Below are positions 1,298 through 28,190 of a stretch of DNA of 64,000 nucleotides, one piece after another. Position 1 is the first letter of the stretch. Each line of letters opens with the position of its first letter. The DNA lies in NCBI GenBank assembly GCA_047285805.1, contig JBJBCN010000003.1, positions 352,001 through 416,000 of the forward strand, given 5' to 3'. A program made the translations under genes and the position numbers. The notes under the pieces were generated by a model. That model did no database searches and was not told the DNA's origin. It saw only the letters and a program-made list of their open reading frames with translations. Source of the stretch: Synechococcus sp. Its GTDB lineage: Bacteria > Cyanobacteriota > Cyanobacteriia > PCC-6307 > Cyanobiaceae.

Positions 1298-2330
1298 GAG
1301 CCTTCTCCGCAATGACTTCAGATAATTTCTTTGAGGTATTGGTCCAACTGAAGCGACGTGCATGTTCAGTACCTCTAAGGTGCAGATTAAATTGCTCATA
1401 TTCTGACGATAAGATTTTAGTTATTGAGTCGACGAGGTCAGATACTGAATACGGATCAATTAATATTGCAGCCTTGCTAGCTACTTCTTGAGTGCCTGAT
1501 CCATAGCTCGTTATTACAGGACAACCACAAGCCATTGCTTCAAGGATCGGGAGGCCAAAACCCTCCCAAAGGCTCGGATAAACAAAAGCACAAGCTCCTC
1601 TGTACCAGTTGGGAAGGTCTGCATAGGGTACGTAGCTCTTGAAAATTACCCTGTCCAACAGATTTAATTCGGCAACCAACTCTTGGAGTCGGATGGTCTC
1701 TGAGTGATGAGGCTTACCCAACAAAAGCAAGTCGACATATGGGAATCTGTGCGCAATTGAATTAAAAGCCTGTATTAAGCGCTTTAGATTTTTATGAGGA
1801 TAGGCCTGCCCAACATGCAGTAGATAGGGACGGTGGTGAAGACGCTGAAAGGACTCTGTAAAATAAAAATGCTCAGAATCGTAACCAAGGGGTGTAACGC
1901 TAATCTTATCTTCTGATACACCTATGCACCGGTTTATTTCAGCTGCAGTAAAATAAGAATTGGTGAGTATGTGGGTACACTGTCTTAGGAGTGGTGGAAC
2001 CCAGCTTTTGAAATAAAGCGTTTGCATTGAGCACTCCGGGTGAATTAAAGGTCTTAAGTCATGGACCATTAGGATCTGAGGAATAGCCTGATCGCCAAGA
2101 TAGCCCTCAGGAGCAGGGGTGAATATAAGATCGGCCTTATATTTCCTGGCCAGCATTGGTAGCTGCATTTGAGTCCAGGCCAAGCGCATCAAACGCTGTT
2201 TACTGGCTCCACAGCCGCCACCAGGAACAAGAATATGCTCGAACTTCTGAAGCGTCGGCAAGACAGCATTGGCGTAAACACCAATTCCTGTAGGCTGATG
2301 CAAGACGGGCTTGTAATTCAGAAGAAGCAT
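1266..2330 (-). CDS. GT4 (GT-B) glycosyltransferase, mannosyltransferase-like
   Basis: TGIGVY N-terminus, HDL motif, PHKNL, YPSLWEGFGLPILEAMACGCPV signature. Confidence 0.9.
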   Translation of the reverse strand: MLLLNYKPVLHQPTGIGVYANAVLPTLQKFEHILVPGGGCGASKQRLMRLAWTQMQLPMLARKYKADLIFTPAPEGYLGDQAIPQILMVHDLRPLIHPECSMQTLYFKSWVPPLLRQCTHILTNSYFTAAEINRCIGVSEDKISVTPLGYDSEHFYFTESFQRLHHRPYLLHVGQAYPHKNLKRLIQAFNSIAHRFPYVDLLLLGKPHHSETIRLQELVAELNLLDRVIFKSYVPYADLPNWYRGACAFVYPSLWEGFGLPILEAMACGCPVITSYGSGTQEVASKAAILIDPYSVSDLVDSITKILSSEYEQFNLHLRGTEHARRFSWTNTSKKLSEVIAEKALIPGKGQPSE

Positions 2331-2334
2331 GATT

Positions 2335-3108
2335 TCAAGTTAGGCCAATCAGGCGACGGCGACTATATTTCAACCAATTGAGAAGCCAACATGCAGCACT
2401 CCAAAAAAAGTTGAGATGGAGAGTCTGCGCACGAAACGTTTCCGCGTACACAGCACCAATCTTGGTGTGACTAACTCCCGCCTGCACGATGTTCAAGACT
2501 GAATTCGGGATATGAATTGCACGCACTGCAGGCGAGAGACGTAAAAACCATTCATAGTCGCCACATATTTTGAAACTGGGATCAAACAACCCAAATCGGT
2601 CAAACAAGTCGCGCCGCACAAGCATCCCTGGATGCGCGACATTCATCGACTCTCGCATGCGTCTCCAACGCCAGGAAGAGCCCCAGTCTCTCAAAAAACG
2701 ACCATCTGAAGAGTAATAGGAGTTTCGACATGTAATTAACTCTGCTGACGAGCTAGTCAGACCAAGCAAGTGCTGCAAAATCTCGGAGCTCACAAAGGTG
2801 TCATCAGCACCGATGAAACACAAATAAGTTCCTCGCGCCAACTTGACCCCTCGATTCCACGCGTCATAGATCCCAACATCAGGCTGAGAACTGCAGCGAA
2901 TCAGGTGATGAGGATGTGCTTCTTGATAATCCCGCACCAGTTGAAATAGACCATCAGAAGAACAATTGTCGAGAATCAACAACTCCCAATCACCTGACCC
3001 TTGCTTCTCGAGACTCCTGAAAAAATTGGCTAATAAGGGAGCACAATTCCAGGTTGCCATCAAGATTGAAATCTTGGGTGCGGCAACAAGCTCCTGGATC
3101 CCCGACAT
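2335..3108 (-). CDS. GT2 glycosyltransferase
   Basis: ISILMATWN, DNCSSDG, GIYDAWNRG, FIGADD, CGDYEW motifs; ATG at 3108 just after the hisS stop (alternative TTG at 3114). Confidence 0.88.
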   Translation of the reverse strand: MSGIQELVAAPKISILMATWNCAPLLANFFRSLEKQGSGDWELLILDNCSSDGLFQLVRDYQEAHPHHLIRCSSQPDVGIYDAWNRGVKLARGTYLCFIGADDTFVSSEILQHLLGLTSSSAELITCRNSYYSSDGRFLRDWGSSWRWRRMRESMNVAHPGMLVRRDLFDRFGLFDPSFKICGDYEWFLRLSPAVRAIHIPNSVLNIVQAGVSHTKIGAVYAETFRAQTLHLNFFWSAACWLLNWLKYSRRRLIGLT

Positions 3109-3110
3109 GT

Positions 3111-4379
3111 TCAAACGGAGAGGATGCTCACCAGCTGATCAATCTCAGTTAACTTAAGGGTCTGCTCCTTCTGCAGTTCCGTGTCCTGACGAAGAGCCTT
3201 CAAGGTCACGATTCCCTGCTCTACCTCGCCATCACCAAGCACACCAGCCCAAGCTGAACCGCTTCGATCAGCTCGCTTGAACTGCTTGCCAAAGGCTGAA
3301 CCCGACGAATCCAACTCCACCCTCAATCCGCGTTGCCTCAGCTTTCTCGCCAGAGCAAGCGCAGACCATTGCGCCTGTACACCCCGATTCACGAGATACA
3401 GATCGGGAGCTTCACTAGCCACTGGAGCTAACTGCGAAAGCAAAAGCACCAAACGCTCTAACCCAATAGCCCAGCCAATGGCGGGAGTCGATGCCCCACC
3501 GAGCTGCTCCACTAGACCGTCGTAGCGACCACCGCCACACACCGTGGCCTGAGCCCCGAGCTGATCACTGGTGATTTCAAAGGCAGTGTGGCTGTAGTAA
3601 TCCAAACCACGTACCAGCCGAGAATTCAAGGCAAAAGGAATTCCAAGAGCTCTCAAGCCAGAGCACACCTGAGCAAAGCGCTCCTGACTCTCTTGGGACA
3701 ATGCACCGGCAAGCATGGGGGCATCCGCCAATAAGGCTTGGGTGTCCTTGTTCTTGCTGTCGAGAATGCGCAGGGGATTGGTACTCAAGCGAGCCTGAGA
3801 ATCCTCATCCAATTGGGTCTCGCGAGCTGACAGCCAAGCCACGAGTTCATCGCGATAGCGAGCGCGATCTGACGCACTGCCGAGGGAATTGAGCTCCAGC
3901 ACCAAATCTTGGACACCCAAGTCCTGGAGCAGATCCCAAGCTGTCGCAATCGCCTCAACGTCCGAACGCGCCGAGTCAAAGCCAAGCATTTCAAGGCCAA
4001 TCTGGTGAAACTGGCGCTGCCGTCCAGCCTGGGGACGCTCATAGCGGAACATCGGACCGCCGTACCAGAGCCGTTGTGGGCCCTGGCTCAGCAATCCGTG
4101 CTGAATCGCTGCTCGGACCACGGAAGCGGTGCCCTCTGGCCTCAATGTGCAACTGCGATCCCCACGGTCGCTGAAGGTGTACATCTCCTTGCCGACCACG
4201 TCGGTGGCTTCACCGATGCCACGAGCAAATAACTCGGTGGTTTCCAGAACGGGCGTTCGAATCTCCGCGACACCCGCTCGAGCGAAGTGGTAACGGGCCG
4301 TGGCTTCCACCTGCTGCCAGAGGCCGATTTGCTCGGGCAACAGATCGACCATGCCCCGCAGACTCTGCAGCTTCGCCAC
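3111..4379 (-). CDS. hisS: Histidine--tRNA ligase
   Basis: [12 protein letters not shown] start, [37 protein letters not shown] motifs; start moved to GTG 4379. Confidence 0.97.
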
Positions 4380-4437: not shown

Positions 4438-5655
4438 GTGACTGGACAAACCCACACCTCGCGGCGGCAAGCTGCAGCACTGCTACTGGGCTCAGTGGCC
4501 TTCTCAGTGGCGGCCTTGGAGTTGGGCTGTCGCCTCCTTGGCATAGAGGCCCCCAGGCTTTACCGAACTGATCCCGATCGCGGCTGGACCCTCAAAGCCA
4601 ACGTGCGCACCCACTGGAGTCAGGAGGGATCCGCTCCAGTGCGCACCAATTCCCAGGGCTATCGAGACAGGGAATGGGCATTGGTGAAGAAGCCGGGCGT
4701 TTTGCGCATTGCCGTCCTTGGCGATTCCTTCACCGAAGCCCTACAGGTGCCACTGGAGCAAACCTGGGTGAATCAACTGCCCGCGGCGATGACAGCGGTA
4801 CCGGAATGTCGCCTACTGAAAGGATTTCCTGAAGGCGCTGAAACCCTGAATTTCGGAGTCGGCGGTTACGGAACAGGGCAGAGCTGGCTGACCTGGGAAA
4901 AGGACGCTCAGCGGTTTCAACCGCAAGTGATCCTTCACGCCGTCTACTTCGAAAATGATCTCAGGGACAACATTCAGAGTGAACGGGGGAGTGGCTCCGG
5001 ACCAACGTTTTCACTCAATCAAGGCACCCTGAGTCGCAGCGACGCCTTCCGCAGCAGCCCGGAATATCGCTTCAGACAGTCCTTAGCCGGACAACTCAGT
5101 GACTGGGTCCTGAGCTGGAGCCGTCTCGCCCAATTGATCAACCAACTCAAAAATCTGCGTAACTCCCGGGCTGGAGAAGAGTGCGCTGCAGCTGGCTGCA
5201 CTTTTTTCCCACTGGGTCCGGATGGCACGAAACTCTATGGTCCGGATCCGGAAGATCTCCCAAGGAACTGGGAGATCTTCCGGAGCATCCTTCGTCAATG
5301 GAATCAAGAATCAGAGAACAGGGGAAGTCGACTGGTTGTCACGAGCGTGACCACGCCTCCGCAACTGTGGCCGAATCGCCGAGAACGTGACCAAAAAGTC
5401 AAAGACCAGCACCTGGACTGGTTCAAACCCGAAACGCAGCTCGCTGCACTCCTCAAACAGGATGGAATTCCCTACCTGCCTCTTGCCCCAGAGCTGCAGC
5501 GACAGGCGGATGAACAAGGCTTAATTGCCCACGGTTTCGTCGGGCAAAAACCCGGACCTGGCTACGGCCATTGGAACCGAGAGGGGCACAAAGCAGCCGC
5601 AACCGCTCTTGCTCAAAAGCTCTGCTCCCTGGACCCACCCCGGATCAGTGGTTGA
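4438..5655 (+). CDS. Membrane-anchored SGNH/GDSL-family protein (SxtL/AlgJ-like)
   Basis: N-terminal hydrophobic anchor ([18 protein letters not shown]), GDSF nucleophile motif, [20 protein letters not shown]; start moved to GTG 4438 to avoid overlap with hisS. Confidence 0.8.
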
Positions 5656-5685: not shown

Positions 5686-6726
5686 TTGGCACAACTGCTG
5701 ATCACTGGCGGAGCAGGCTTTATTGGCAGCCACACCTGCCTGGTGTTGCTGGAGGCTGGTCACGATCTCGTGGTGCTGGATGACTTCAGCAACAGCTCAC
5801 CCGAATCGCTCAGGCGCGTCCGCCAACTCGCAAATCTGGGGAGCAGCTCCGCGCGACTCCAGGTTGTGGAAGGAGACATCAGAAGCAAGAGCGACCTTCG
5901 AAAAGCCTTCCAGACAGGGACATGCATCGACGCAGTCATCCACTTCGCCGGCCTCAAGGCTGTGGGCGAGTCCGTGCGTGAGCCCCTGCGCTACTGGGAT
6001 GTGAATGTCGCCGGCAGTCAATCCCTGCTCTCTGTCATGCCGGAGGAGAACTGCCGCACTCTCGCCTTCAGCAGCAGCGCCACCCTCTACGGCTTGCCCG
6101 AGCGTATCCCCGTTACTGAAGACGATCCGGTCCAGCCCATCAACCCATACGGCTTCACCAAGGCGGCTGTGGAGCAAATGCTGAAGGACCTCAGCAGCAG
6201 CGAACCGGGTTGGCGCATCGCACGTTTGCGCTACTTCAACCCCGTCGGCGCCCACCCCAGCGGCCAGATCGGAGAAGACCCCAACGGCATTCCCAACAAC
6301 CTCTTCCCCTTCGTCTCTCAAGTGGCGGTTGGACGGCGCCAAGAGCTCCAAATCTTTGGGAGCGACTGGCCAACCCCCGATGGCACAGGCGTCCGGGACT
6401 ACATCCACGTCATGGACCTGGCCGAGGGGCACCTCGCCGCCATTCAGCACCTCATGGAGCAAGGACCCCAGTTGCTCACCGTGAACCTGGGCAGCGGACA
6501 AGGGCATTCCGTCTTGGAGGTGGTCCAAGCCTTTGAGCAAGCCTCGGACAGACCCGTGGCTTACCGACTCGTGGAGCGCCGCCCTGGAGACGCGGCAACC
6601 ACTGTGGCGGATCCGTCCTTGGCGAATCGCGTGCTGGGGTGGCGTACGAAGCGGTCGCTGGAAGAGATCTGCCGCGATGGCTGGTCCTGGCAGTCCCAAA
6701 ACCCAGAGGGTTACAGCGACAGCTGA
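5686..6726 (+). CDS. galE: UDP-glucose 4-epimerase
   Basis: TGGAGFIGSH, HFAGLKAVGES, YGFTK, LRYFNPVGAH, DGTGVRDYIHV. Confidence 0.96.
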   Translation: MAQLLITGGAGFIGSHTCLVLLEAGHDLVVLDDFSNSSPESLRRVRQLANLGSSSARLQVVEGDIRSKSDLRKAFQTGTCIDAVIHFAGLKAVGESVREPLRYWDVNVAGSQSLLSVMPEENCRTLAFSSSATLYGLPERIPVTEDDPVQPINPYGFTKAAVEQMLKDLSSSEPGWRIARLRYFNPVGAHPSGQIGEDPNGIPNNLFPFVSQVAVGRRQELQIFGSDWPTPDGTGVRDYIHVMDLAEGHLAAIQHLMEQGPQLLTVNLGSGQGHSVLEVVQAFEQASDRPVAYRLVERRPGDAATTVADPSLANRVLGWRTKRSLEEICRDGWSWQSQNPEGYSDS

Positions 6727-7960: not shown

Positions 7961-10339
7961 CTACAAGGGCTCGATCGGAGCGAGGCGCGGATCAAGGATC
8001 TTCGGCCCCATGCCCTCGAACTTGACCGCCAACGAGATCTTTTCGCCGCTACCAAACAAGTGCGTGACCTGACCTTCCCCAAAGGAGCTGTGCCGCACAC
8101 GGTCGCCGACGGACCAGGTCCGGGCAGGAGCACGCCGACGGACGGCATTCGCAGGCTGTGATGAAGCAAAACCTGAACCCAGACGGTCGACGCGGGTGAG
8201 GCGATCCAGTCGCTGTTCCCTGCGGATAGCAGCACCACCGCTTCGGGGAATATCCCCTTGCACCAAGGCCTCCGGTAGCTCAGAGAGGAAGACGGACGGT
8301 ACAGCCGGTTCCCTCATGCCGCCCCAGAGACGTCGCTCGCTTGCATGGGATAAGAACAGCCGCTCTTTCGCACGCGTAATGCCGACATAGCAGAGGCGGC
8401 GCTCCTCCTCCATCGCCGCAGGATCTTCCAAGGAGCGGTAGCTGGGGAACAGGCCCTGCTCCATGCCGACCAAAAAGACCACGGGAAACTCCAGACCTTT
8501 GCTGGCGTGCAAGGTCATCAACGTGACCCTGTCCTGCTCGGTGTCCTTGCTGTCCGCGTCACTGGCCAGGGCGGCGGACGCCAGGAACTCCTCGAGGGAG
8601 CCCTCTTCGTTTTCCTCTTGGTACTGGAGTGCCGCGTTGACCAGTTCGTTCAGGTTGCGGCGCCGGTCTTCAGCCTCATCGGTCCCGGCAGCGATCAGCT
8701 CGGCGACATAACCGCTCTTCTCCATGGCGAGTTGAACCAGTTCCGAAGGAGCCGCATCTTCCGAGCGGTCTTTCAAGTGGTTGATCAACTCACAGAACTG
8801 CAACAGTCCCTTTGCGGAACGTCCACCCAGAGAACGAACCGCCTCGGGGTCACTGACCACATCCCAGAGCGGAATATCCAGTTGATTCGCGGCATCCGTC
8901 AGCCGTTCAATCGTGGTCTTACCAATCCCGCGCTTTGGTGTATTCAGGACCCGAAGCAAGCTCACCGTATCGGCAGGATTCACCAACAATTTGAGATACG
9001 CCAGCATGTCTTTGATTTCACGCCGGTCGTAAAAGCGAAGACCGCCCACCACCACATAAGGAATGCCCCAACGCACCAGGGATTCCTCCATCGCACGGGA
9101 CTGGGCATTGGTCCGGTACAACACCGCCATATCGCCCCAGCTCAAGTCGGGGTGTGCCGCATCAAGCATTCGCATGCGGTGAACCACCGCTTCTGCCTCG
9201 GCAATCTCGTCATCACAGCGGGTCAAGGTGAGCAGCTCTCCCTCACCTCGGGTGGGCCGCAAGACCTTGTCGATGCGCTCGCTGTTGTTGGCAATCAGAA
9301 CGTTTGCAGCCTCAAGAATGGTGGCCGTAGAGCGATAGTTTTCCTCCAACTTGACCATGGTCTGGGTGGCTTCATCGGGGGCACCGTCGCCAAAGTCATC
9401 CTGAAAACCCATCAGGATCGTGAAGTCAGCGGCCCGGAAGCTGTAGATGCTCTGATCGGCATCACCCACCACAAACACCGAGCGACCAGCCCAGTCTTCA
9501 AAGGCTTCAGGGTCCCGGCCATCGGTCACCAGAAGCTTGATCAGTTCATATTGTGTGCGGTTGGTGTCTTGGTACTCATCCACCAGCACATGTCGAAAAC
9601 GCCGGTGCCAATAGTTGCGAACCTGCTCGTTCTGGCGCAGCAATTGCACTGGAAGCAGAAGCAGATCGTCGAAATCCAACGCGTTGTTCGCGGCTAACGC
9701 ACGCCGATAACGCCGATAGGTTTCAGCCATCAACTTGCCGCGCTGCCCGCCCGTGTCAGCTTCAAGCTGCTCTGGCATCCAACCCTGGTTCTTGGCGTTA
9801 CTGATAGCCCAGCGCACCTTCTTGGGCTCAAAACGCTTGGGGTCCAGCCCCAGCTCCTGGGTGACAATCTCCTTAACCAGACTCTGGGTATCCCCCTCGT
9901 CGTAGATCGAGAACTGACGCGTCCAGGTCAGGCCCTCTGGATCGCGGAACTTGTCGATGTCAAACCGGAGCAACCGCGCGAAGAGAGCATGGAAAGTGCC
10001 AATCCAGAGGTCTTTGATGACCTCGCGGTAGATCCGCGAGCGCAACTGCCGCTGATCAACGGCGGCCAAGGTGCTCCAAGGCTGTCCGAACTGACTCTGC
10101 GCGAGCTTCTGAGCCAGAAGCAGCTCAAGCCGCTCCTTCATCTCGCGAGCCGCCTTATTCGTGAAGGTGACCGCCAGCAACTCCGCTGGATCAACGCCGT
10201 GCTGCCCAATCATGTGGGCGATGCGGTGGGTTAGAGCGCGGGTTTTACCGCTGCCCGCACCCGCCACCACCAGCAATGGACCCTCATGGTGGTCCACCGC
10301 CTTGCGCTGGGCGTCATTCAGACCAGCCAGAAAACTCAT
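7961..10339 (-). CDS. pcrA: ATP-dependent DNA helicase PcrA/UvrD
   Basis: AGAGSGKT, TFTNKAAREM, VDEYQDTN, GDADQSIYSFR, TLHASKGLEF, EEERRLCYVGITRA, C-terminal Tudor-like domain. Confidence 0.96.
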   Translation of the reverse strand: MSFLAGLNDAQRKAVDHHEGPLLVVAGAGSGKTRALTHRIAHMIGQHGVDPAELLAVTFTNKAAREMKERLELLLAQKLAQSQFGQPWSTLAAVDQRQLRSRIYREVIKDLWIGTFHALFARLLRFDIDKFRDPEGLTWTRQFSIYDEGDTQSLVKEIVTQELGLDPKRFEPKKVRWAISNAKNQGWMPEQLEADTGGQRGKLMAETYRRYRRALAANNALDFDDLLLLPVQLLRQNEQVRNYWHRRFRHVLVDEYQDTNRTQYELIKLLVTDGRDPEAFEDWAGRSVFVVGDADQSIYSFRAADFTILMGFQDDFGDGAPDEATQTMVKLEENYRSTATILEAANVLIANNSERIDKVLRPTRGEGELLTLTRCDDEIAEAEAVVHRMRMLDAAHPDLSWGDMAVLYRTNAQSRAMEESLVRWGIPYVVVGGLRFYDRREIKDMLAYLKLLVNPADTVSLLRVLNTPKRGIGKTTIERLTDAANQLDIPLWDVVSDPEAVRSLGGRSAKGLLQFCELINHLKDRSEDAAPSELVQLAMEKSGYVAELIAAGTDEAEDRRRNLNELVNAALQYQEENEEGSLEEFLASAALASDADSKDTEQDRVTLMTLHASKGLEFPVVFLVGMEQGLFPSYRSLEDPAAMEEERRLCYVGITRAKERLFLSHASERRLWGGMREPAVPSVFLSELPEALVQGDIPRSGGAAIRREQRLDRLTRVDRLGSGFASSQPANAVRRRAPARTWSVGDRVRHSSFGEGQVTHLFGSGEKISLAVKFEGMGPKILDPRLAPIEPL

Positions 10340-12165
10340 GAAGCCGCCTGTTGCTGCTCAAGCATGGCTAGCTCTCGGAAGCTCTCAGACCGCTCCTTCA
10401 GTTCGGTGTAGCTGCCGTAGGCCTTCACGCTGCCGTTATAGAACTCGTAGATGCGATCGCACCGCTGAACCGTACTGAGCCTGTGGGCGATGACGACCGT
10501 GGTGCAACGGCGTCCGATCACCTCGAGGGCTTCGATCACCTCTGACTCCGTGCGGTTATCCAAGGCGCTTGTGGCCTCATCAAGAACCAAGAAGCTGGCC
10601 TGCCGGTAGAAGGCCCTCGCAAGGGCAAGACGTTGCCGCTGGCCGCCGGAGAGGCGCAAACCATTCTCCCCCACCTGGGTATGCAGCCCATAGGGAAGTT
10701 CAGCCACAAAGTCTTGGAGCTGTGCCGCCTCTAAGGCTTCCCAAACCCTGTCGGACTTGACCTGATCAATCGGCTCACCAAATGCGACGTTCTCGAGAAC
10801 ACTGCCGTTGAGCAAATTGATCGACTGGGGAACTTGGGCGCAGTTGGCCTGCCAGGCAGGAACATCTAGACCTTCGACTGGGATCCCATCGAGGTCCAAA
10901 GCTCCGCGATTGGGATGCAGCAATCCCAAGAGGATGTTTGCGGTTGTGGTTTTGCCGCTACCGGTGCTGCCGACCAGAGCAATGCGCGAGCCGACCGGAA
11001 TCGACAGGTTGACTCCCTTGAGCACCCAGTCATCGGAGTGGGGGTAGCGGTACCAGACGTCGTGCAGGCGAATGGTGTTCCGCGGAAACACACCTGCAGC
11101 AGAAGGCACACCGGGGGTGCGCTGGGTCGGCCGATCAGCTGACAAATCCAGCAATGCCAAAGCCCCATCCAGCAGAGGAAGCCCTCCTCTCAATTGGGTC
11201 AAGGAGCGAAACGCATCCTGCAGGGGTGGCGTTAGGCGAAGGGCCGCGACTGCGATGGTGGCCAGAAACGGAAGTATCGCCCTGACTTCGTTCTGATTGC
11301 CACTCAGGAGAGCGGGCAGGGCTCCGACCGCAAAAATCATGGTGATCCCGAAGGGCTCGATCAAGCCGCGGGGCAGATCTGGGAGCCACTCGGTCAACCA
11401 GGCGTAGCGGCGCGCCTTCTCTCCAGAAACTTGAAATTGACGCTCAAAGTAAGGCTCAGATCCGCTGAGTTGGATATCGCGAATCGACCCAAGTGACTCA
11501 AACAGGATATTCGTGGATTCCGCCTCAAGACGCATCTTTTGACGGAAGCCATGGCGCAGTCTGGGGGTCACGCTGCCGGAGATGACGCTGTAGGCTAAAA
11601 CCAAGCTGACGACTAGAACAACAGCAAGCCAACGACCGACGAACAAAATGCCGATCGACAAGAGCACGATCGACACAGATGCACTAAGGATTTGCAGAAT
11701 CGGCGTGACAACATTGATCGCAACACGATTGAGGTTGCTCAGTAACTGAGAACTCAGATCAGCCGTACTTTTGCCGAGGTGATATTCAAAGGGCTGCTGA
11801 AGCAGTCTGGAGTGGACCTCATTCGAGATATCTCTCCAAATTCCAGCCGAAAGACGTTGCTGAAAAAACTTCAGCGAAATCTTGGACAGTGAGGCACCCC
11901 AAGCCAAGAGAATGAAGACCAGGATCATCCAGACGCTCTGGTTGATGCTGTCTCCGCCAAAGACATGAATCCCTGGCAGCCGATCCTCAAGATCGGAGTC
12001 CACCAAAGAACCCGTCAGACGGGCGATCACCGCGACGGAGGCCAAATCGATCACGCCGGGGACCACCGAGAGGGGCACCAACATCCACAACGCCGAACGC
12101 CGCCGCCGCGGCAGGTGATTCAGCAGGTGGCGTAGCTGATCGAGGGTTCGGCTGCGCATGGCCAC
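10336..12165 (-). CDS. ABC exporter, fused TMD-NBD (HepA/PglK-like, possible glycolipid flippase)
   Basis: N-terminal TM helices, GSTGSGKTT Walker A, LSGGQRQR, LDEATSALD. Confidence 0.88.
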   Translation of the reverse strand: MAMRSRTLDQLRHLLNHLPRRRRSALWMLVPLSVVPGVIDLASVAVIARLTGSLVDSDLEDRLPGIHVFGGDSINQSVWMILVFILLAWGASLSKISLKFFQQRLSAGIWRDISNEVHSRLLQQPFEYHLGKSTADLSSQLLSNLNRVAINVVTPILQILSASVSIVLLSIGILFVGRWLAVVLVVSLVLAYSVISGSVTPRLRHGFRQKMRLEAESTNILFESLGSIRDIQLSGSEPYFERQFQVSGEKARRYAWLTEWLPDLPRGLIEPFGITMIFAVGALPALLSGNQNEVRAILPFLATIAVAALRLTPPLQDAFRSLTQLRGGLPLLDGALALLDLSADRPTQRTPGVPSAAGVFPRNTIRLHDVWYRYPHSDDWVLKGVNLSIPVGSRIALVGSTGSGKTTTANILLGLLHPNRGALDLDGIPVEGLDVPAWQANCAQVPQSINLLNGSVLENVAFGEPIDQVKSDRVWEALEAAQLQDFVAELPYGLHTQVGENGLRLSGGQRQRLALARAFYRQASFLVLDEATSALDNRTESEVIEALEVIGRRCTTVVIAHRLSTVQRCDRIYEFYNGSVKAYGSYTELKERSESFRELAMLEQQQAAS

Positions 12166-12188: not shown

Positions 12189-13226
12189 CTACGGCTTCAA
12201 ACGGCCAGCCAGCGAACCGATTGGCCTGAGTTTTGTTTTCAGCTGAAGCCACCACCGTGCTTGAGCCTTCAGCGCAGGTTCCCCAGCAAGAATCCGGTCC
12301 CAGTGCTGATTGACCGCCTCGAGCGCCTGCCGCCAACGCGTCAGGAGCTCCGCCTCGCTGGCCGATGCCAAAAGAGCTGTCAGAGCTGCTTGATCGGGTC
12401 TCCATGCTGCGGGATCTCGAACCGCAGCGCTGATCGCCTCGAGATCTGCCGCCAACGTGCCCGATCCCAGCTGGTGCCCTATTCGTCCTGGATCCAAGGT
12501 GTCGGCCAATGCGTGGTTGAAGCTGCTGAACACCACGCAGCCGCAGGCAAGGGCCTCTAAGGGGGGTAGACCAAAACCCTCAGTGACTCCGCGACCGCGC
12601 CAGTAGTCCGCCGAGTCATAGAGCACCACCTTGGCGTTGTTGAAGAGATCCACCAGGTCATCGACCCATCCAGACTGAACCTCAACACGGAAGCCCCGGG
12701 CCTGCAACGCGGGAACCAACTGCTTCAGGACATAGGCGCTGTTCTTACGCAGCTGGACAAGGACATCGATGCTGCGCTCGCCCGCTCCATTGCGCTGTCC
12801 CCGCTGGAGCCATTCGGGGCTGAGGGCATTGGGGACCAGCCAAAGCGGATTGCGAGGTACCCGATCACCCCAGTACCCCAGGGTGTTGCGACTCACCGCC
12901 AGGACAGGCACGCCAGGAGACAGCGAAAAGCCATAGCCACTGCTGTGGGCGTGATAAGCACAGGCACGGCCTTTGAGTTGCCGCAGCAACCAAGGAACGT
13001 CAAAACCCCAGCTCACGATCCACAGGGCGGGACTGACTCCGCCTGGAAGGGGGTCATCGCGCAACAAATCTGGCAAAAAGGGACGACCGTCCTCTCGCTG
13101 GCGATACGTCACCACTTCAACCGGACACAGACCTGACAACATCCGGGCGGTTTGAAGCTCAACTAAGAGCCCTCCGCAACGAAAGCGACCCGTCGTCCCG
13201 GGAACTAAGAAGCGAAGGGGGCGCAA
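12189..13226 (-). CDS. GT-B glycosyltransferase
   Basis: CGGLLVE N-terminal motif, TEGFGLPPLEALACGC signature. Confidence 0.82.
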   Translation of the reverse strand: MRPLRFLVPGTTGRFRCGGLLVELQTARMLSGLCPVEVVTYRQREDGRPFLPDLLRDDPLPGGVSPALWIVSWGFDVPWLLRQLKGRACAYHAHSSGYGFSLSPGVPVLAVSRNTLGYWGDRVPRNPLWLVPNALSPEWLQRGQRNGAGERSIDVLVQLRKNSAYVLKQLVPALQARGFRVEVQSGWVDDLVDLFNNAKVVLYDSADYWRGRGVTEGFGLPPLEALACGCVVFSSFNHALADTLDPGRIGHQLGSGTLAADLEAISAAVRDPAAWRPDQAALTALLASASEAELLTRWRQALEAVNQHWDRILAGEPALKAQARWWLQLKTKLRPIGSLAGRLKP

Positions 13227-15989: not shown

Positions 15990-16019
15990 AAAAAGCCCGG
16001 TCCTGACAGGCCGGGCTTT
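15990..16019. terminator. Intrinsic terminator between convergent icd and sxtK-like genes (better U-tract on the minus strand)
   Basis: AAAAAGCCCGG-TCCTGACAGG-CCGGGCTTT hairpin. Confidence 0.8.
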
Positions 16020-16043: not shown

Positions 16044-16205
16044 CTAGAAGATTGAATAGATAAAGGGTGCAACAACAGATCCCTGGGTGAACACCAACAG
16101 AGCTCCCATCAGAACAATTGTGATGATCAGAGGAGCTAGCCAATACTTCTTCCGGACCTTTAGGAAGTCAAAGACGTCGTTGAGCAGATCAAGAAATGGT
16201 CCCAT
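16044..16205 (-). CDS. 53-aa single-pass membrane peptide, SxtK/DUF5989 family (absent from the ORF track)
   Basis: Translated by hand: MGPFLDLLNDVFDFLKVRKKYWLAPLIITIVLMGALLVFTQGSVVAPFIYSIF*. ATG lies 7 bp after the sxtJ-like stop. RKKYWLAP and APFIY motifs are typical of the family. Confidence 0.9.
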   Translation of the reverse strand: MGPFLDLLNDVFDFLKVRKKYWLAPLIITIVLMGALLVFTQGSVVAPFIYSIF

Positions 16206-16613: not shown

Positions 16614-18449
16614 TTAATCGAGCTCAAACTCCTGTTTCCAACTTTCGTCAGCCTCCTCTTGCGGCTGCTCTTCCTTCAACAACAACTGATTTTGAAGCAC
16701 CAACACATCCATCTCCGTCCGCATAAAACAGCGGTAAGCATCCTGGGGATTACAAACGATGGGCTCACCACGAACGTTGAAGGATGTATTCACTAGGGTC
16801 GGACAACCCGTTCTACGCTGGAAGGACTTGATCAGATTGAAGTAGCGAGGATTGGTTCGATCCGAAACAGTCTGGACGCGTGCTGAGTAATCGACATGCG
16901 TAATGGCTGGCAGAGATGAACGCGGAACATTGAGTTTTTCAATTCCAAAAAGCTTTTCCTGTTCTGCTGTCATGGACTGGCAAAGCTCTTTCTTCACCGG
17001 CGCAACCAAAAGCATGTAAGGGCTTTTGGCATTGAGCTCAAACTGATTCGAGACTTCCTGTTCAAGAACTGATGGAGCAAAAGGGCGGAAGCTTTCGCGG
17101 TACTTAATTTTCAAGTTCATCACGCTCTGCATCTGCTGATTGCGCGGATCTCCGATGATTGAACGTGCACCTAGAGCACGCGGTCCAAATTCCATCCTGC
17201 CGTTGAACCAGCCAACCACTTTTCCTTGGTCCAAAAGCTCGGCCAACCGATCAAAGAGGAGCGGGTCCTCAAGGGCATGGAATGGAGCCTTGATACTGGT
17301 GAGGTAATCGCGGATTTCGGAATTCGAAAAGGCCGGACCCAGATAAGTCCCCTTCATTGCATCGCCAGCTACCGGTTGGCGGCTGGCTTTGAAGTGCTGG
17401 TGCCAAGCCACCAGTGCAGCACCAAGGGCTGAGCCGGCATCGCCACTGGCCGGCTGAATCCAGACCTGATCAAAGATGCCCTCTCGGAGCAACTTCCCAT
17501 TCGCCACGCAATTGAGTGCAACACCTCCTGACAAACAAAGAACTGTCGCGCCCGTTTCCTGCTGGAGGGCCTGGGCCAACTTTATAACAACCTCTTCAGT
17601 GACCACCTGAATGGAGGCAGCCAAGTCCATATGGAATTGACTGAGCTCAGTTTCTCCTCTGCGCGGGGGGCGACCAAACAATTTGTGGAACTTGCGGCCG
17701 GTCATACGAAAGCCGCGATGAAACTTGAAGTAACTCAGATCGAGACGGAATGTCCCATCTGGCTTTATATCAATCAGGCGGGATTTTATTTGATCGACAT
17801 AACGCGGCTTACCGTAGGGAGCCAAGCCCATTAACTTGTACTCACCTGAATTAACCTTGAAGCCGCAGTAGTAGGTAAACGCCGAGTAGAGCAGCCCCAA
17901 CGAGTGGGGGAAATTGATCTCCCATAGTGGACTGAGTTCGGAGCCATCACCCAGCCATGCCGAAGTAGTCGCCCATTCACCGACACCATCCATGCAGAGG
18001 ACTGCCGCCTTCTCAAACGGGCTGGGATAAAAAGCTGCTCCAGCATGGGAAAGGTGGTGCTCACTGAAGAGCAGCTCGGGCTGCTTGGCATCAGGCTCAC
18101 CGAGGGCCGCCACTTGTTTTTTCAGCTCAGTCTTGAGAAAGAGCTTTTGTTTCAACCAGATCTGCATCGCGGCCACAAACGAGCGCCCGCCGCGGGGAGC
18201 CGCACCCAAATAGGTCTCAAGCAAGCGCTCAAACGTCAGCAGTGGCTTTTCGTAGTAGACGACTGCCGCGATATCGCTCAGCTTCAGACCCTGAGACTCC
18301 AGGCAATAACGAGCTGCTGAAGCAGGAAAGGAGGAATCGTGCTTTTTTCGGGTGAAGCGCTCTTCTTGGGCGGCTGCAACAACTTCGCCATCAACTAGCA
18401 GGGCAGCGGCACTGTCGTGGTAGTAAGCGGAAATTCCCAGGATGCGCAT
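16614..18449 (-). CDS. O-carbamoyltransferase (NodU/CmcH/TobZ/SxtI family)
   Basis: MRILGISAYYHDSAA start (ATG 18449), EERFTRKKH, EHHLSHA, GEYKLMGLAPYG, GGVALNCVANG, EFGPRALGARS, NTSFNVRGEP. Confidence 0.95.
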   Translation of the reverse strand: MRILGISAYYHDSAAALLVDGEVVAAAQEERFTRKKHDSSFPASAARYCLESQGLKLSDIAAVVYYEKPLLTFERLLETYLGAAPRGGRSFVAAMQIWLKQKLFLKTELKKQVAALGEPDAKQPELLFSEHHLSHAGAAFYPSPFEKAAVLCMDGVGEWATTSAWLGDGSELSPLWEINFPHSLGLLYSAFTYYCGFKVNSGEYKLMGLAPYGKPRYVDQIKSRLIDIKPDGTFRLDLSYFKFHRGFRMTGRKFHKLFGRPPRRGETELSQFHMDLAASIQVVTEEVVIKLAQALQQETGATVLCLSGGVALNCVANGKLLREGIFDQVWIQPASGDAGSALGAALVAWHQHFKASRQPVAGDAMKGTYLGPAFSNSEIRDYLTSIKAPFHALEDPLLFDRLAELLDQGKVVGWFNGRMEFGPRALGARSIIGDPRNQQMQSVMNLKIKYRESFRPFAPSVLEQEVSNQFELNAKSPYMLLVAPVKKELCQSMTAEQEKLFGIEKLNVPRSSLPAITHVDYSARVQTVSDRTNPRYFNLIKSFQRRTGCPTLVNTSFNVRGEPIVCNPQDAYRCFMRTEMDVLVLQNQLLLKEEQPQEEADESWKQEFELD

Positions 18450-18527: not shown

Positions 18528-19826
18528 ATGGCCGAGCCCCTGATCCACAGCACCGATCCCTGCGTTCACTGCGGGTTTTGCCTGCCCACCTGTGCCAGCT
18601 ACCGGGTCCTCGGTAATGAAATGGACTCCCCACGCGGGCGGATCCACACCCTCAAAGCAATTGAACGCGGAGAGATCGCGTTCGATCCCACGGTGGCCTC
18701 ACATTTCGACACCTGCCTGGGCTGCCTCGCCTGCGTCAGCGCCTGTCCATCGGGAGTGCGCTACGACGAACTGATCCAAGCAACCCGGCCCAAGCTGAAC
18801 GCTCCGGAACTCAGAAGTCCATGGCAGCGGAGTTTCCGGAAGCTGTTGTTCTCCCTATTGCCGTACCCCAACCGGCTGCGGCCACTGCTCTTGCTGCTGC
18901 GGAGCTACAGCGGCTCTGGTCTTCAAAGGTGGGTCAGGCGCAACCGCCTGCTGCGCGTGCTGGGGCCAGAACTCGAAGCTATGGACAGATTGCTGCCAGA
19001 GCTGCCCAAGACCTCAGAAGCGGTGCCATTCCCCGCCGTCGTGGCTGCCCAAGGACCCAAACGAGGACGGGTGGCCTTGGTGCTTGGCTGCGTTCAACGG
19101 GTGTTTGACCCTGATGTGAACCAAGCCACCGTTGATGTTCTCAGCGCCAATGGCTTTGAAGTGGTCATCCCTCAGCAACAGGGCTGCTGTGGAGCGGCCA
19201 CCCATCACCAAGGAGAACTCGAGCAGACAAAAACCTTGGCGCGCGATCTGATTCAGGCGTTCAAGACAAGCGAACCCGTAGACGCCGTCCTGATAGCCGC
19301 CTCAGGCTGCGGCCACACCCTGAAGCAGTACGGCCAAATCCTCGCTGGAGAAGCCACGCCCTCCTTTGATGCACCCGTCAAAGACGTCCACGAATTCCTT
19401 AGCGAAGTGGGCCTGGCGCCCTCCTTTACAGAGCAACTCACGCCCCTGGCCCATGCCGATGGATCACCTGCCAGTGCCGAGCGACCGTTGGCGGTGGCCT
19501 TCCATGACGCCTGCCACATGATCCACGGGCAAGGGATCAAGGCCCAACCCAGACAGCTCCTGAAGGCCATCCCCCATCTCGCTCTCAAAGAAGCGTTTGA
19601 TGCAGGGGTCTGCTGCGGCAGCGCCGGCATCTACAACCTCGTGCAACCCGAGGCAGCCGCCGAATTGGGTCGAATGAAAGTCACTGATTTGGCGCAAACC
19701 GGGGCGAGCCTGGCCGCCAGCTCCAACATCGGCTGCACCCTTCAACTGCGTCAGCACGCCCCAGCAACGCTTCAAGTGCTGCACCCGATGCAGCTGCTCA
19801 GCCGCAGTTTTCGGGCAAGCCCTTGA
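18528..19826 (+). CDS. glcF: Glycolate dehydrogenase iron-sulfur subunit
   Basis: CVHCGFCLPTC and CLGCLACVSACPSGV ferredoxin motifs, two CCG domains; start ATG 18528. Confidence 0.9.
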   Translation: MAEPLIHSTDPCVHCGFCLPTCASYRVLGNEMDSPRGRIHTLKAIERGEIAFDPTVASHFDTCLGCLACVSACPSGVRYDELIQATRPKLNAPELRSPWQRSFRKLLFSLLPYPNRLRPLLLLLRSYSGSGLQRWVRRNRLLRVLGPELEAMDRLLPELPKTSEAVPFPAVVAAQGPKRGRVALVLGCVQRVFDPDVNQATVDVLSANGFEVVIPQQQGCCGAATHHQGELEQTKTLARDLIQAFKTSEPVDAVLIAASGCGHTLKQYGQILAGEATPSFDAPVKDVHEFLSEVGLAPSFTEQLTPLAHADGSPASAERPLAVAFHDACHMIHGQGIKAQPRQLLKAIPHLALKEAFDAGVCCGSAGIYNLVQPEAAAELGRMKVTDLAQTGASLAASSNIGCTLQLRQHAPATLQVLHPMQLLSRSFRASP

Positions 19827-20985
19827 GCTGTTTCAGCACCTGCCCCACCAACTGCTGAGGATGGGGCAATTGATCCATCCGCGGGCTGCCAACCGCCGAG
19901 GAGGTGCAGAGCTCCGCAATGGCCTGGGCGAAATCAGCCGCATCACCACTGCGATGGACCCGACCCCGCTCAGAGGGTTCCACGAGATCAACAGATGAAC
20001 CCACCTTGTCGCTGCAAATCACATTCAGCCCAAATTGCTGTGCCTCATTGACCACCAATCCCCAGGTCTCACCTTGAATCGAGGGCAGCACCAAGGTGTC
20101 CGCTAGGGCATAGAAACGTCCAAGTTGCTGCTGATTTTGAAAGCCCATCCCGCGCCAACGACCAGGGAGCACGTCCTCCAGCTCAGCCTCCAGAGCTGCT
20201 CGCAACTCGCCGTCGCCAACCACGACCACCACAATCAAATTCAATCGAGGGTCGGCTTTCAAGTGGGCCAGGGCCTGGGGCAAAAGCAAAGGATTTTTGA
20301 CCGGGCTGATCTTGCCGACATACAGCAACACATGGTCCCCGGGCTGAATCTGCAAGTCGCGCCGGAGTTGCTGACGCTGCGGCGTCCATTGGGCCACCTG
20401 TGACGCGAAGAAATCAACATCGACCGCATAGCGAGCCAGGCTCTGCTTCTCGAGGGGTATGCCTAAGCGCAGGTAGTGCTGCTGTGAGCGGGTGCCGATT
20501 GGGAAGACGTGGCTAAAGAGTCCATACCAATGCCTCAAGACCCGATCACGCAAGAAGCGCTTCAGCCCCGAGCGCTCGAGGGCATGGTCTGTCGTTTCAG
20601 CTCGCAGCCAAAGCGTCTGTTCTGCCTGGGCTAACAGCAGGGTGGTGAACTGAATGAACCGCGGGGAGTAGCTGAAGACCAACACCGAATCAGGCTGAAA
20701 CGCCTGAATCTGCGCGGCCGCCTGGCGGGCAATGGGCCAGGCACCGCTGGTGGAGCTCAAGGCCTGCAGGGGTGCCCTGCTGGCAAAGCTTGAGGGAAAG
20801 CCTTCGATCGGATTGCTATCCCAGGCAAACGTCACCCTGAAATCAGGGTCAGCGCTGGCCTGTAAACCGTGGTCACAGCCATAAACCACCAGAAACTCCA
20901 CCTCTGGGTCCGCAGCCAAGCCTTGAAAGATCGGCTTGAAGTACTGAATGGGATGGGTGACCAGCGCCGCGAGTCGACGCTTCAT
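19798..20985 (-). CDS. GT4 glycosyltransferase
   Basis: THPIQY, VGKISPVKN, LPSIQGETWGLVVNEA; ATG coupled (TAATG) to the upstream stop. Confidence 0.88.
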   Translation of the reverse strand: MKRRLAALVTHPIQYFKPIFQGLAADPEVEFLVVYGCDHGLQASADPDFRVTFAWDSNPIEGFPSSFASRAPLQALSSTSGAWPIARQAAAQIQAFQPDSVLVFSYSPRFIQFTTLLLAQAEQTLWLRAETTDHALERSGLKRFLRDRVLRHWYGLFSHVFPIGTRSQQHYLRLGIPLEKQSLARYAVDVDFFASQVAQWTPQRQQLRRDLQIQPGDHVLLYVGKISPVKNPLLLPQALAHLKADPRLNLIVVVVVGDGELRAALEAELEDVLPGRWRGMGFQNQQQLGRFYALADTLVLPSIQGETWGLVVNEAQQFGLNVICSDKVGSSVDLVEPSERGRVHRSGDAADFAQAIAELCTSSAVGSPRMDQLPHPQQLVGQVLKQLKGLPENCG

Positions 20986-22253
20986 TACCGCCATTGGATA
21001 AAGCCCAGCAGAGATTTCGCAAACAAGCTGCAACCCGCTCGCAGCAGGATCCAGAGATCCAGGGGCGCCGATCCCCGGGCCAGGTAATACAGATCGCGGC
21101 CCAACTCCCAACGCAAGGCATCGACCTCCTGGGGTGCTGGGCCCGAGATGCGACCCCAGCCGGTCATCCCAGGCTTGATCAAAAGTCTGAGCTCAAAACT
21201 CTCGTCCAAGTCACGCAAATGGTTCTGCTGCTCGGGGCTCACCGGCCTCGGGCCCACAAGACTCATCTCACCCCCCAGCACGTTGAGAACTTGAGGGAGG
21301 GCCGCCAGTCCCGTGCGCTCCAGCCAGCGGGACCCGCCAAAGCGCCACTGACCGAAGACCTGGCCATCAATACCAGCGCACGGTGACTGCACCATCGCGA
21401 CCTTGGAGCTCAGACGGGTGAGAACCAGAAGCGTGGTAAGAGCGGGCAAGGCTGCGCTCGCCAAAAGAAGGTCCACCAAACGCTTGAGCCGAAAGCGCTG
21501 GGGTGAACGCGGACCGGACAAGCGCTCCAGCTGTTCCGTCCAATCCAACTGTTGAAGCAGACCAGGCGGGTAGCGCTTCAAGTGGTGCAGAGCCCAATCC
21601 GCCAGGGGACGAATCACCACCCCCTGGCGTTGCCAGAGCAAGAGCACCTCTTGGTCCTCAGCGATCACCGAGCCGCGGCCGACGGCGACGCCTTGGAGCT
21701 TGAGCAGCTCAGGCAGGAAATCAGGAATTGGGGCTGCACCAGACAGGGGCCGCCATTCCACCGCCGCTGGCACATCGCAGCCTCCCTGCTCCAGCTCCTG
21801 GGACAACACCCGTCGTTCTTGTTTCTCGGCTAACACCAACCAACGCTGCTGGGGCTGCCAAAAATGACTACTACCTTGCAGGCCATGCAACAGCAAGAGG
21901 CTGCAGCCGCCACTCAACAATACGGGAACCAGGAAGCCGCGGCCAATGGACGCATCCAGGCTGAGGCCCGACACCACGTAGCTGACCACAAGGATCAAAA
22001 CCACGGCGACGCACGCGGAGAGATATCGGTTGAAGTGGTCTTGAAGCGTCAGAGTGCGGCGGGCGAGGCCGGCATAGGCGCCAAGTAACCACTGCAGAAA
22101 AACCAAGAGGGGAATGACAATCAGCGGCCCTTTGCTGATCGCCGGCTCGACGCCAAAGCGAAGGTGGTGTAGACCCACCCAAAGGGCGACGATCAAGCCG
22201 GCGTCCAGGCCAGCCCACGCCAGCGGTTTCGGCAGCTGCACTCTGCTTGGCAT
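20985..22253 (-). CDS. WcaJ/WbaP-like sugar transferase homologue with degenerate catalytic motif
   Basis: N-terminal TM helices, KRLVDLL, LPQVLNVLGGEMSLVGPRP, KPGMTGW, DLYY..LDLWIL. Confidence 0.8.
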   Translation of the reverse strand: MPSRVQLPKPLAWAGLDAGLIVALWVGLHHLRFGVEPAISKGPLIVIPLLVFLQWLLGAYAGLARRTLTLQDHFNRYLSACVAVVLILVVSYVVSGLSLDASIGRGFLVPVLLSGGCSLLLLHGLQGSSHFWQPQQRWLVLAEKQERRVLSQELEQGGCDVPAAVEWRPLSGAAPIPDFLPELLKLQGVAVGRGSVIAEDQEVLLLWQRQGVVIRPLADWALHHLKRYPPGLLQQLDWTEQLERLSGPRSPQRFRLKRLVDLLLASAALPALTTLLVLTRLSSKVAMVQSPCAGIDGQVFGQWRFGGSRWLERTGLAALPQVLNVLGGEMSLVGPRPVSPEQQNHLRDLDESFELRLLIKPGMTGWGRISGPAPQEVDALRWELGRDLYYLARGSAPLDLWILLRAGCSLFAKSLLGFIQWR

Positions 22254-27041: not shown

Positions 27042-28190
27042 CTAGACTAATTTGCCTAAATAAAACATCCTAGCCATCACAACCGAAAGAGCCATAAGCG
27101 GAACAGACGCCACAAGAATCACCTTGCGCGGCAAATAACTACCGGCCAAGACGAAAACTGGCGCAAGCAAGGCTTCTTGGCGATAAAAAGAAACACTATC
27201 GCCAATCAAATGCGGAAGAATCCAGCACGCCCATCCCATGATCAAAAAACAAAGGCTTAATGATGCGTTCTGATCCGAAATATGCCGTACGATTATAGTG
27301 GTCGCCAAAATCATGAGAATAAAGACTGTGGCTGTCTGAAGAAATACAGGATTCTTCCAGAAGTAGCGCACCGAAGAGCGAAGCACTGTAAACCCGAGAC
27401 TCCATGAATGGCCGTATCTAGCTTGGGTCAATGAATAAGCAGAGACGATGCCTGAAGCGTGATCAATCCATGCTCTCGCAGCGAAATGTCCAAAGAGGGG
27501 GGCTGTAACAGGAAGAATACGTAATACTTGAGATTGAACACTTTGGGAAACATTTCGCTTCACCAAAAAAGGAGTCAGCGCAACCGCAAGAATTACAGAG
27601 CTTGGATATGCAAAGGCAGCCAAAAAAGCGCTCACCGCTGACTCTACCAAGAAGGAATAGAGAAACAACCAAATTGCTAATAAATCTAAGGCCGTCGTCA
27701 GTGAAACTGGAAAAGCTGCAACGTGATAGATGCCACCAGGCAAAATAAGAAAAGCAGCGGCAACAAAAACTGGAGACCAACGCCTCTGAATCAAACGAGA
27801 GAGAATTTCAGACGCGACCAAAAGCGATGAGACCGTGGCCACCAAGGCAGCCCAGGAAATTGAGAGGCCCAGTCTTTCGAAGGCTCGGATAATCCATGGA
27901 AACAATGGGAACCAGCCGGTGTTCCCACAGATAAATTGACCACAAGGCTCAGCAGAATATCCGTCCCTCGCAATAGATAAATAGTGAAAAGAATCCCAGC
28001 GAAGCCATGCTGCAGGCTCAGAGAATAAACCTGAAGGCATTCGAAACTCACCTGCACCTAGCCTAGGCGAAAGAACCAGGAACAATAACAGTGTAAACAG
28101 AGAGACTGGGAGTACAACAGACAACACATAACGCGTAGCCATCTTAAGAGACTGTTTAAGTGTCGCATCCAGATTCTTCACACGCACCAC
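27042..28190 (-). CDS. GT-C integral membrane glycosyltransferase (PIG-V/mannosyltransferase-like; GtrC role)
   Basis: RWDSFHYLSIARDGY and WFPLFP motifs in the first external loop, many TMs, AT-rich. Confidence 0.75.
   Translation of the reverse strand: MVRVKNLDATLKQSLKMATRYVLSVVLPVSLFTLLLFLVLSPRLGAGEFRMPSGLFSEPAAWLRWDSFHYLSIARDGYSAEPCGQFICGNTGWFPLFPWIIRAFERLGLSISWAALVATVSSLLVASEILSRLIQRRWSPVFVAAAFLILPGGIYHVAAFPVSLTTALDLLAIWLFLYSFLVESAVSAFLAAFAYPSSVILAVALTPFLVKRNVSQSVQSQVLRILPVTAPLFGHFAARAWIDHASGIVSAYSLTQARYGHSWSLGFTVLRSSVRYFWKNPVFLQTATVFILMILATTIIVRHISDQNASLSLCFLIMGWACWILPHLIGDSVSFYRQEALLAPVFVLAGSYLPRKVILVASVPLMALSVVMARMFYLGKLV

Follow-up and report, generated by a model that had tools for sequence, protein, structure and literature searches.

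A DUF5989/SxtK microprotein with a DltX-like tail as a candidate carbamoyl carrier in a Synechococcus carbamoyltransferase operon

The DNA analyzed here (the window) is a 64,000-nucleotide stretch of a Synechococcus genome in which three genes follow one another on one strand: a NodU/TobZ-type O-carbamoyltransferase (CT), an SxtJ-family membrane protein (J), and a 53-residue microprotein (K), with gaps of 2 nt between CT and J and 7 nt between J and K (Table 1). The original prediction, made from the letters of the sequence, had described this peptide as the last gene of a tight operon and had given it an FIYSIF ending; exact translation returns that ending, and the gene order is as described. 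A terminator had been placed after the operon, and a terminator-like hairpin does stand there, but the scan gave 8 sites of this kind where shuffled sequences predict 7.3, so the hairpin is weak evidence alone. The gene for an SGNH protein (S) lies 10.4 kb from K in a separate transcription unit. Glycan genes abound in the window (GT2, GT4, GalE, a sugar transferase, and an ABC exporter), and no further sxt-like gene was found among the 30 ORFs scanned in positions 1-32,500. Two window ORFs of ~380 aa each (152-1297 and 27042-28190) have no Pfam match at E 0.001; the former is hydrophobic and adjoins glycosyltransferase genes. The source genome is 100% complete and carries one K, one CT, and one J. 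As predicted, it appears to be free of MBOAT genes: neither PF03062, a search whose control was positive in 3 of 14 genomes, nor a four-sequence HMM found one. The nearest relatives belong to Synechococcus, Vulcanococcus, and Prochlorococcus.

Table 1. Positions of the features discussed, in window coordinates unless a locus is named.
Feature	Position	Strand	Basis or remark
SxtK/DUF5989 microprotein K, 53 aa	16044..16205	-	translation, Pfam profile match
Terminal hexapeptide FIYSIF of K	16047..16064	-	Tyr50 codon 16056-16058; proposed carbamoyl carrier
SxtJ-family membrane protein J, 132 aa	16213..16611	-	PF19588, E 1e-42
NodU/TobZ-type O-carbamoyltransferase (CT), 610 aa, start ATG at 18446	16614..18446	-	PF02543 + PF16861
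Terminator-like hairpin and T run, end of CT-J-K operon	15994..16012	-	consensus match only
SGNH protein S, N-terminal TM helix 9-33, proposed final transferase	4438..5655	+	fold comparison
GalE UDP-glucose 4-epimerase, 30 nt 3' of S gene	5686..6726	+	context
GT4 glycosyltransferase and polyprenyl sugar-phosphate transferase	19798..22253	-	glycan-synthesis context
Further GT4/GT2 genes	1266-3114 and 12189-13226		context
ABC exporter	10336-12165		context
GvgB-like poly-Lys peptides	L278:4076-4162, L279:9665-9760, L280:8973-9062, L281:10216-10335		4/4 loci inspected

K is a member of a known family and no orphan. It matches Pfam DUF5989/SxtK (PF19451) with E 1.3e-23 and 83.2 bits against a cut-off of 27, over model positions 2-49, and 2,552 cluster representatives match at E 0.001. 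The peptide consists of an amphipathic helix (residues 3-17), a basic KVRKK patch (16-20), one TM helix (~22-40), a linker, and the FIYSIF tail. Across 116 K sequences from three phyla, Pro25 and Tyr50 are the only invariant columns. Among the best 80 of at least 304 confirmed GTDB loci, the tyrosine is kept in all 80 and FxYxxF in 76, always at the stop codon. Such endings occur in 2 of the 39,697 stop-to-stop ORFs of the source genome. The DUF5989 match and the conserved tail lead us to reject a chance ORF. Lysine and arginine residues total 433 in the 10 positions before the TM helix and 3 after it when summed over the 116 peptides, a charge count that predicts a single-TM, N-in/C-out topology, as originally proposed; the tyrosine lies on average 9.3 residues past the helix. 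Mean column identity is 67% over the whole length of K and 65% for CT, compared with 10% for S.

The tail had been called DltX-like. The description holds for an invariant tyrosine within FxYxxF at a free C terminus, but not for descent: the DltX Pfam model was unmatched by all 116 K sequences at E values up to 10 (most matches above 0.1 were filtered out), and on this ground we reject membership of K in the DltX family. The likeness, as judged from the sequences, is one of motif and layout, with no demonstrable homology. Pfam DUF5976 is matched by 66 of the 116 K (best E 6e-5) and may be a sister family; a search of 221 genomes from a single Pseudomonadota family found neither DUF5976 nor the K profile. 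DUF5989 also occurs in 11% of the members of a 185-aa Atlas cluster (score 0.76), a lead only. Loci L139, L220, and L222 have two K copies, and the tails at L220 and L222 are divergent (FIYAGM, YIYEAR, YIYNPF) with the tyrosine retained. Apparent J-K fusions were rejected, since the 10 inspected of 120 look like stop read-through or frameshift artifacts, as was a phage origin of K, since viral contigs with K number only two (L227 and L228 of IMG/VR, where one K adjoins a CT and the other stands alone).

The window CT has no TM helix and matches solved NodU/TobZ-type structures with E values of 1e-77 to 1e-95. It ends in the acidic WxxEFELD sequence typical of its clade, whose members share an acidic WxxEFxLD tail (window 16614-16680) and in many cases carry a ~20-aa insertion in the C-domain (about 16930-16990 in the window). 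Both elements are candidates for sites where the basic patches of K and J could dock. The model of J (pLDDT 88.6) contains helices at 9-35, 42-56, and 58-102, followed by an unstructured, basic tail that carries DPL and SY motifs. No J residue is invariant; F15, P58, W68, P94, D105, and Y117 are conserved at 90% or more. A fold search returned generic helical hairpins only (best Z 6.0), with no MBOAT-like match. The proposal that SxtJ takes the place of an MBOAT as a conduit is not supported here, and we regard J as an unlikely mini-MBOAT, since this 132-aa protein showed neither an invariant histidine or other catalytic residue nor an MBOAT fold match; the same lack counts against the relay proposed below.

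The SGNH assignment of S was upheld. Its model (pLDDT 91) has an N-terminal TM helix and compares best with CgnD (Z 22.3, rmsd 3.2 over 242 residues); the next match has Z 15.2, and PatB is a distant one at Z 11.8. A sequence search against the PDB gave spurious antibody matches only. The putative catalytic residues are Ser97 (in GDS), Asn173, and His378, and among 106 S relatives the serine is invariant and the histidine kept in 104. An aspartate stands two or three residues before the histidine in 70 of those 104 and is missing from window S; this and the 10.4 kb between S and K count against the relay proposed below. Pfam assigns 65 of the 106 to GDSL_2 and 15 to the transferase-type AlgX model. 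Near K, 103 of 111 scored S proteins have an N-terminal TM helix (15 of all S matches were unscorable), and the charges flanking these 103 helices favor N-in in 63, tie in 21, and oppose it in 19, a spread that also counts against the relay. Of 100 anchored S, 68 have an even cysteine count of at least two and 25 an odd one, whereas among soluble S the even class comprises 5 of 15. Such parity would be expected for an oxidizing compartment; anchored S is predicted to face outward. The closest relatives of window S (42-43% identity) lie within ~3 kb of a CT in L004 and L051. Two weaker SGNH-like genes on contig C2 of the source genome (1148248-1149954, E 3e-21; 873406-874089, E 9e-11) may be alternative partners.

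An association among NodU-type, SxtJ, and SGNH genes had been anticipated, and it is confined to one clade of CTs. In the best 80 of at least 304 K-anchored loci, many of them on short contigs, CT is present in 71, J in 71 (72 with the window), and an SGNH-like gene in 55. As a CT-anchored control we used 140 regions of 14.5 kb, hand-picked from the listed PF16861 matches rather than sampled at random (Cyanobacteriota, 40 of 53; Pseudomonadota, 60 of 150 listed; Myxococcota, 40 of 150 listed) and balanced between long and short CT C-domains; three were dropped for short CT matches. A FastTree phylogeny of 138 CTs places 84 tips, including the window, in one clade with support of 0.92. Of the 83 loci inside this clade, 67 have J, 62 have K, 37 have SGNH, and 1 has MBOAT. 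None of the 54 loci outside it has J or K, and the 2 with SGNH have it next to an MBOAT. Neighbors of K supplied the seed of the SGNH HMM, which is biased toward detecting S there, and six SGNH candidates in non-clade loci are motif-only. At the genome level, K lies elsewhere in 17 of the 20 genomes whose clade CT has no adjacent K, and the three with no K at all are those with a TM-less SGNH. K exceeds the cut-off in 3 of 41 genomes chosen for non-clade CTs, all three with several CTs. Similarly, of 29 K genomes in which no S adjoins K, 26 have S elsewhere, against 5 of 32 genomes chosen for non-clade CTs; the other 3 of the 29 gave no S, which counts against the relay. Because kin are not independent, these counts carry no p-values. 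Neither a variable tyrosine in DUF5989 nor a lack of SGNH association, the outcomes open to computation that had been named as adverse to the original prediction, appeared.

The module is also seen on annotated plasmids. SGNH, J, K, and CT stand in this order within an exopolysaccharide cluster on an Ensifer plasmid, and the set occurs on S. meliloti and Methylosinus plasmids as well. In S. meliloti 1021 the module's SGNH, J, K, and CT correspond to SM_b20469-72 on pSymB (482210-486412; L229:9758-13960). SM_b20472, a NodU-type CT 59.5% identical to the window CT, is named ornithine carbamoyltransferase (arcB2) in PMC7268258. TnSeq in S. meliloti gave no clear common phenotype for the four genes, none of which is essential in LB. 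A Paludisphaera plasmid has CT-J-K with no annotated SGNH, and a Planktothrix plasmid (L232:9552-11391) has J-K-SGNH, lacks a CT within 10 kb, and carries a sterol desaturase, a methyltransferase, and a DMT transporter as neighbors of the set. Three to four SGNH paralogs accompany a single CT-J-K set in L091-L093, L095, L105, and L007, which suggests one carrier feeding several substrate-specific enzymes. Natural fusions join CT to J in L096 and CT to SGNH through a TM helix in L212, where the SGNH part is degenerate. L132 (8139-11393) encodes a fusion of a TM-less SGNH with a degenerate CT, and convergent to it lies a CT-J pair that is intact; its genome yielded no K.

Membrane-free versions of the module also occur. 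L203 encodes a TM-less SGNH, a CT, and a soluble 118-aa protein, Q (L203:7623-7979), that ends in SPFVYVMF. Q has 24 homologs and no Pfam match, and its tyrosine is invariant in all 25 sequences. Its first half aligns with J residues 83-132 (hhalign 83.6%, E 8e-6) and its last 15 residues with the K tail (72.6%, E 3e-5), which points to an undescribed family of soluble fusions between the J tail and the K tail. At 43 metagenome Q loci (L235-L277) CT is present in 40, SGNH in 16, MBOAT in 3, and J and K in none; one of the two patterns used in the scan is the tail itself, so its conservation is partly built in. The SGNH upstream of CT has no TM helix in any of the 13 scored. The 19 Q-linked CTs and the 15 soluble S form groups, with support of 1.0 in each case, that nest within the membrane type. 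The trees thus indicate that Q arose once, with three changes coupled in that event, and this single origin counts against the relay.

A further soluble arrangement has the gene order of the gvg cluster. In L278 a 47-aa ORF aligns with columns 74-117 of J (E 3e-5), corresponding to helix 3 and the tail of J, and a 28-aa Lys-rich ORF ending in SSIYPMF directly follows a TM-less SGNH. In L279-L281 the peptide again comes straight after SGNH, with endings SSIYPMH, SSIYPLR, and SSIYPLR, also where the oxidase gene is elsewhere; those of L280 and L281 are missing from the annotated features. A mini-J after the CT of L281 matches J at 96.3% and E 2e-9, and a mini-J-like ORF lies downstream of the CT in L282. 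These GvgB-like peptides do not match the K profile (probability 1.4%), and the terminal phenylalanine is kept in 1 of the 4; both facts count against the relay. All 116 K, 25 Q, and 4 gvg-type peptides keep the tyrosine, always fourth from the free C terminus. In L155, L158, and three further relatives the CT itself ends in THRVYTFF, and in L155 and L158 (CT at 5834-7597 in L158) it is followed by a TM-less SGNH-like gene of 700 aa and then by radical-SAM-like and NRPS-like genes, both recognized by eye. Few close sequences are available, and a CT-fused shuttle in a small-molecule cluster is a weak possibility here. Where SGNH has no membrane anchor, then, the tyrosine tail is off the membrane too, as Q or as a Lys-rich IYPxx peptide. 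The part of J retained in Q and mini-J is helix 3 with the SY tail, and its survival in membrane-free variants would fit CT docking better than a pore; J looks like a CT-docking adaptor and not a channel.

From the computed sequences, conservation, co-occurrence, folds, and fusions we infer each chemical step, the complex, and the acceptor as follows. Enzymes of the TobZ/NodU family form carbamoyl-adenylate in the cytoplasm from carbamoyl phosphate and ATP, and the window CT would do the same. The third helix and SY tail of J would dock CT at the membrane beside K, whose hydrophobic tail, ~9 residues past its TM helix, would dip back into a bilayer thinned by J to reach CT. Tyr50 would then be carbamoylated by CT as an activated aryl carbamate, a step suggested by the identity and invariance of the motif, and, by analogy with PatB, Ser97 of S would accept the group from Tyr50 and hand it on to an acceptor, which the gene context suggests is probably a surface glycan. 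No MBOAT would be required. That K is a covalent carrier in such a relay, from CT through tyrosine to the SGNH serine with SGNH outside, is in our estimate somewhat better than an even proposition; a relay from CT through tyrosine to SGNH in whatever topology is the broader claim, and we consider it probable. The soluble variants mean that the motif is by nature no membrane-crossing device, which counts against the crossing model, and the original definition of the system by membrane crossing and a surface glycan proves too narrow, given soluble forms and small-molecule clusters. A wider generalization, to which we give slightly less than even weight, is that one NodU/TobZ clade never modifies its substrate directly and instead loads the tyrosine of a carrier peptide, feeding exchangeable SGNH enzymes through carbamoyl-Tyr and carbamoyl-Ser; the route would cross the membrane with SxtJ/SxtK and stay in the cytoplasm with Q, GvgB/GvgG, or a CT-fused tail, and SxtL, GvgA, and possibly CgnD would be true transferases, not hydrolases.

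The tail of K could instead be a noncovalent docking or activating peptide, with the group passed directly within the complex or with CT alone modifying the substrate. K is conserved over its full length to the degree that CT is, at a level far from the divergence of S, as would suit a peptide that binds CT; convergence could account for FxYxxF, given that K has no DltX profile match; and other NodU-type CTs, at 54 loci, act without small partners. Phenylalanine would suit most docking roles, however, yet the tyrosine goes unreplaced in every K, Q, and gvg-type peptide, and the location of the tail tracks that of SGNH; on balance we judge docking unlikely. A second alternative is the same tyrosine relay run wholly on the cytoplasmic face, with K re-entrant and the S domain inside, acting on lipid-linked or soluble precursors before export. 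The crossing problem would disappear, soluble Q and gvg-type versions are known, the flank charges of S are nonuniform, and J has no obvious pore. This arrangement nevertheless seems improbable in the face of the charge asymmetry of K, the cysteine parity of anchored S, and the single TM helix that separates CT from SGNH in the L212 fusion, whose SGNH is, however, degenerate.

We give similarly little credence to a scheme in which J and K do no more than anchor CT, with SGNH acting as a hydrolase to remove or edit carbamoyl groups. That is the standing annotation of SxtL (PMC2679770, PMC3037375), most fold neighbors of S are esterases, and CgnD is described as hydrolyzing slowly in vitro in the portion of PMC10070186 used here. 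In the accessible text of the SxtL papers, however, the annotation is only proposed, and the gvg and pnp clusters yield no product once the SGNH gene is lost, according to the parts of the two reports consulted (bioRxiv 10.1101/080572, PMC4010436). In addition, the anchors are dispensable in Q operons, where the tyrosine tail stays, and the AlgX-type matches among S are to a transferase model. The covalent relay, if correct, would supply a mechanism for two DUF-level families across Cyanobacteria, Proteobacteria, Myxococcota, and Planctomycetes, and would broaden the tyrosine acyl-shuttle principle so that it covers a non-acyl group and MBOAT-free systems. It would also predict extracytoplasmic glycan carbamoylation in abundant marine picocyanobacteria and rhizobia, give a new assignment to SGNH genes in several natural-product clusters, and account for the tiny ORFs that FVG requires. 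Q operons offer a membrane-free system for biochemistry.

Comparison with described systems begins with the saxitoxin clusters, where sxtI, J, K, and L are adjacent; in the accessible portions of these papers the functions of J and K are given as unknown and L as a proposed, unproven decarbamoylase (PMC2684587, PMC2679770, PMC3037375, PMC5132012, bioRxiv 10.64898/2026.06.11.731795). The window holds a module of this sxtIJKL type, with a clade CT, SxtJ, and SxtK adjacent and SGNH in the same genome (10.4 kb away, outside the operon), but it has a glycan context, and its likeness to sxt is drawn from descriptions and not from sxt protein sequences. The gvg cluster of Pseudomonas fluorescens WH6 similarly has an SxtI-like CT, an SGNH, and two small essential ORFs: gvgA encodes an esterase, gvgB a Lys-rich peptide of 27 aa without a TM helix, gvgF a CT 55% identical to SxtI, and gvgG a 47-aa TM protein, and deletion of each abolishes FVG, with complementation in trans (bioRxiv 10.1101/080572, in part). 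The gvg authors already suggested that small TM proteins act with CTases through a common mechanism, and the parts of their text seen give no role to a tyrosine (bioRxiv 10.1101/080572). The gvg type differs from the window in that its SGNH and tyrosine peptide have no TM helix and its product is a small molecule. Our peptide comparison uses the relatives in L278-L281, the WH6 peptides being represented here by partial published descriptions. We know of no carbamoyl group in the final structure of FVG, and the gvg genetics thus speak for a joint need and not for transfer.

In Pantoea, insertions in the SGNH gene and in the CT gene of pnp1B/D both lose the product, as stated in the part of PMC4010436 available. 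The report on CgnD, in the passages used here, describes a slow hydrolase/protease from a cluster with a CT and notes that related clusters have a glycosyltransferase in place of the CT (PMC10070186); for the relay reading it is neutral to adverse. Stand-alone NodU, TobZ, NovN, GdmN, and WapO enzymes are the same two-domain protein as the window CT, but non-clade CTs have a J, K, or MBOAT-free SGNH neighbor at 0 of 54 loci and no acidic WxxEFxLD end. Carbamoylated LPS core is known and is assigned to WapO in the accessible text of PMC8005017. Among papers searchable in full text, a coverage that excludes most subscription papers, none ties SxtK, DUF5989, or GvgB to a tyrosine shuttle. The mechanism had been offered as undescribed, and this stands for the tyrosine relay, apparently new with respect to the literature searched, but not for the link between small TM ORFs and CTs, which is already published (bioRxiv 10.1101/080572, in part).

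The acyl shuttle motif FXYXXF is documented for DltX and for MBOAT C termini, and in PatA/PatB the PatA tyrosine is acetylated and PatB takes acetyl from O-acetyl-FIYANF (PMC12148441, in the sections used). PatA, whose tail is FIYANF, and the AlgI-type MBOATs, which end in FIYFQF-type sequences among those fetched, share with K the same tail and with its module an SGNH protein, which in the K module is the proposed final transferase; the K tail differs in being on a separate peptide, with no MBOAT or catalytic histidine. Another close parallel is DltX/DltB/DltD of teichoic acid D-alanylation, described in the same source as a single-TM, N-in/C-out microprotein with a C-terminal FXYXXF, an invariant tyrosine, and an N-terminally anchored SGNH partner (PMC12148441, in part). 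The K system differs from it in having no MBOAT and no carrier protein, an extra small protein in J, and as donor a soluble adenylating carbamoyltransferase, with carbamoyl as the likely group. By this analogy, K would work like DltX while belonging neither to the DltX family nor to an MBOAT system.
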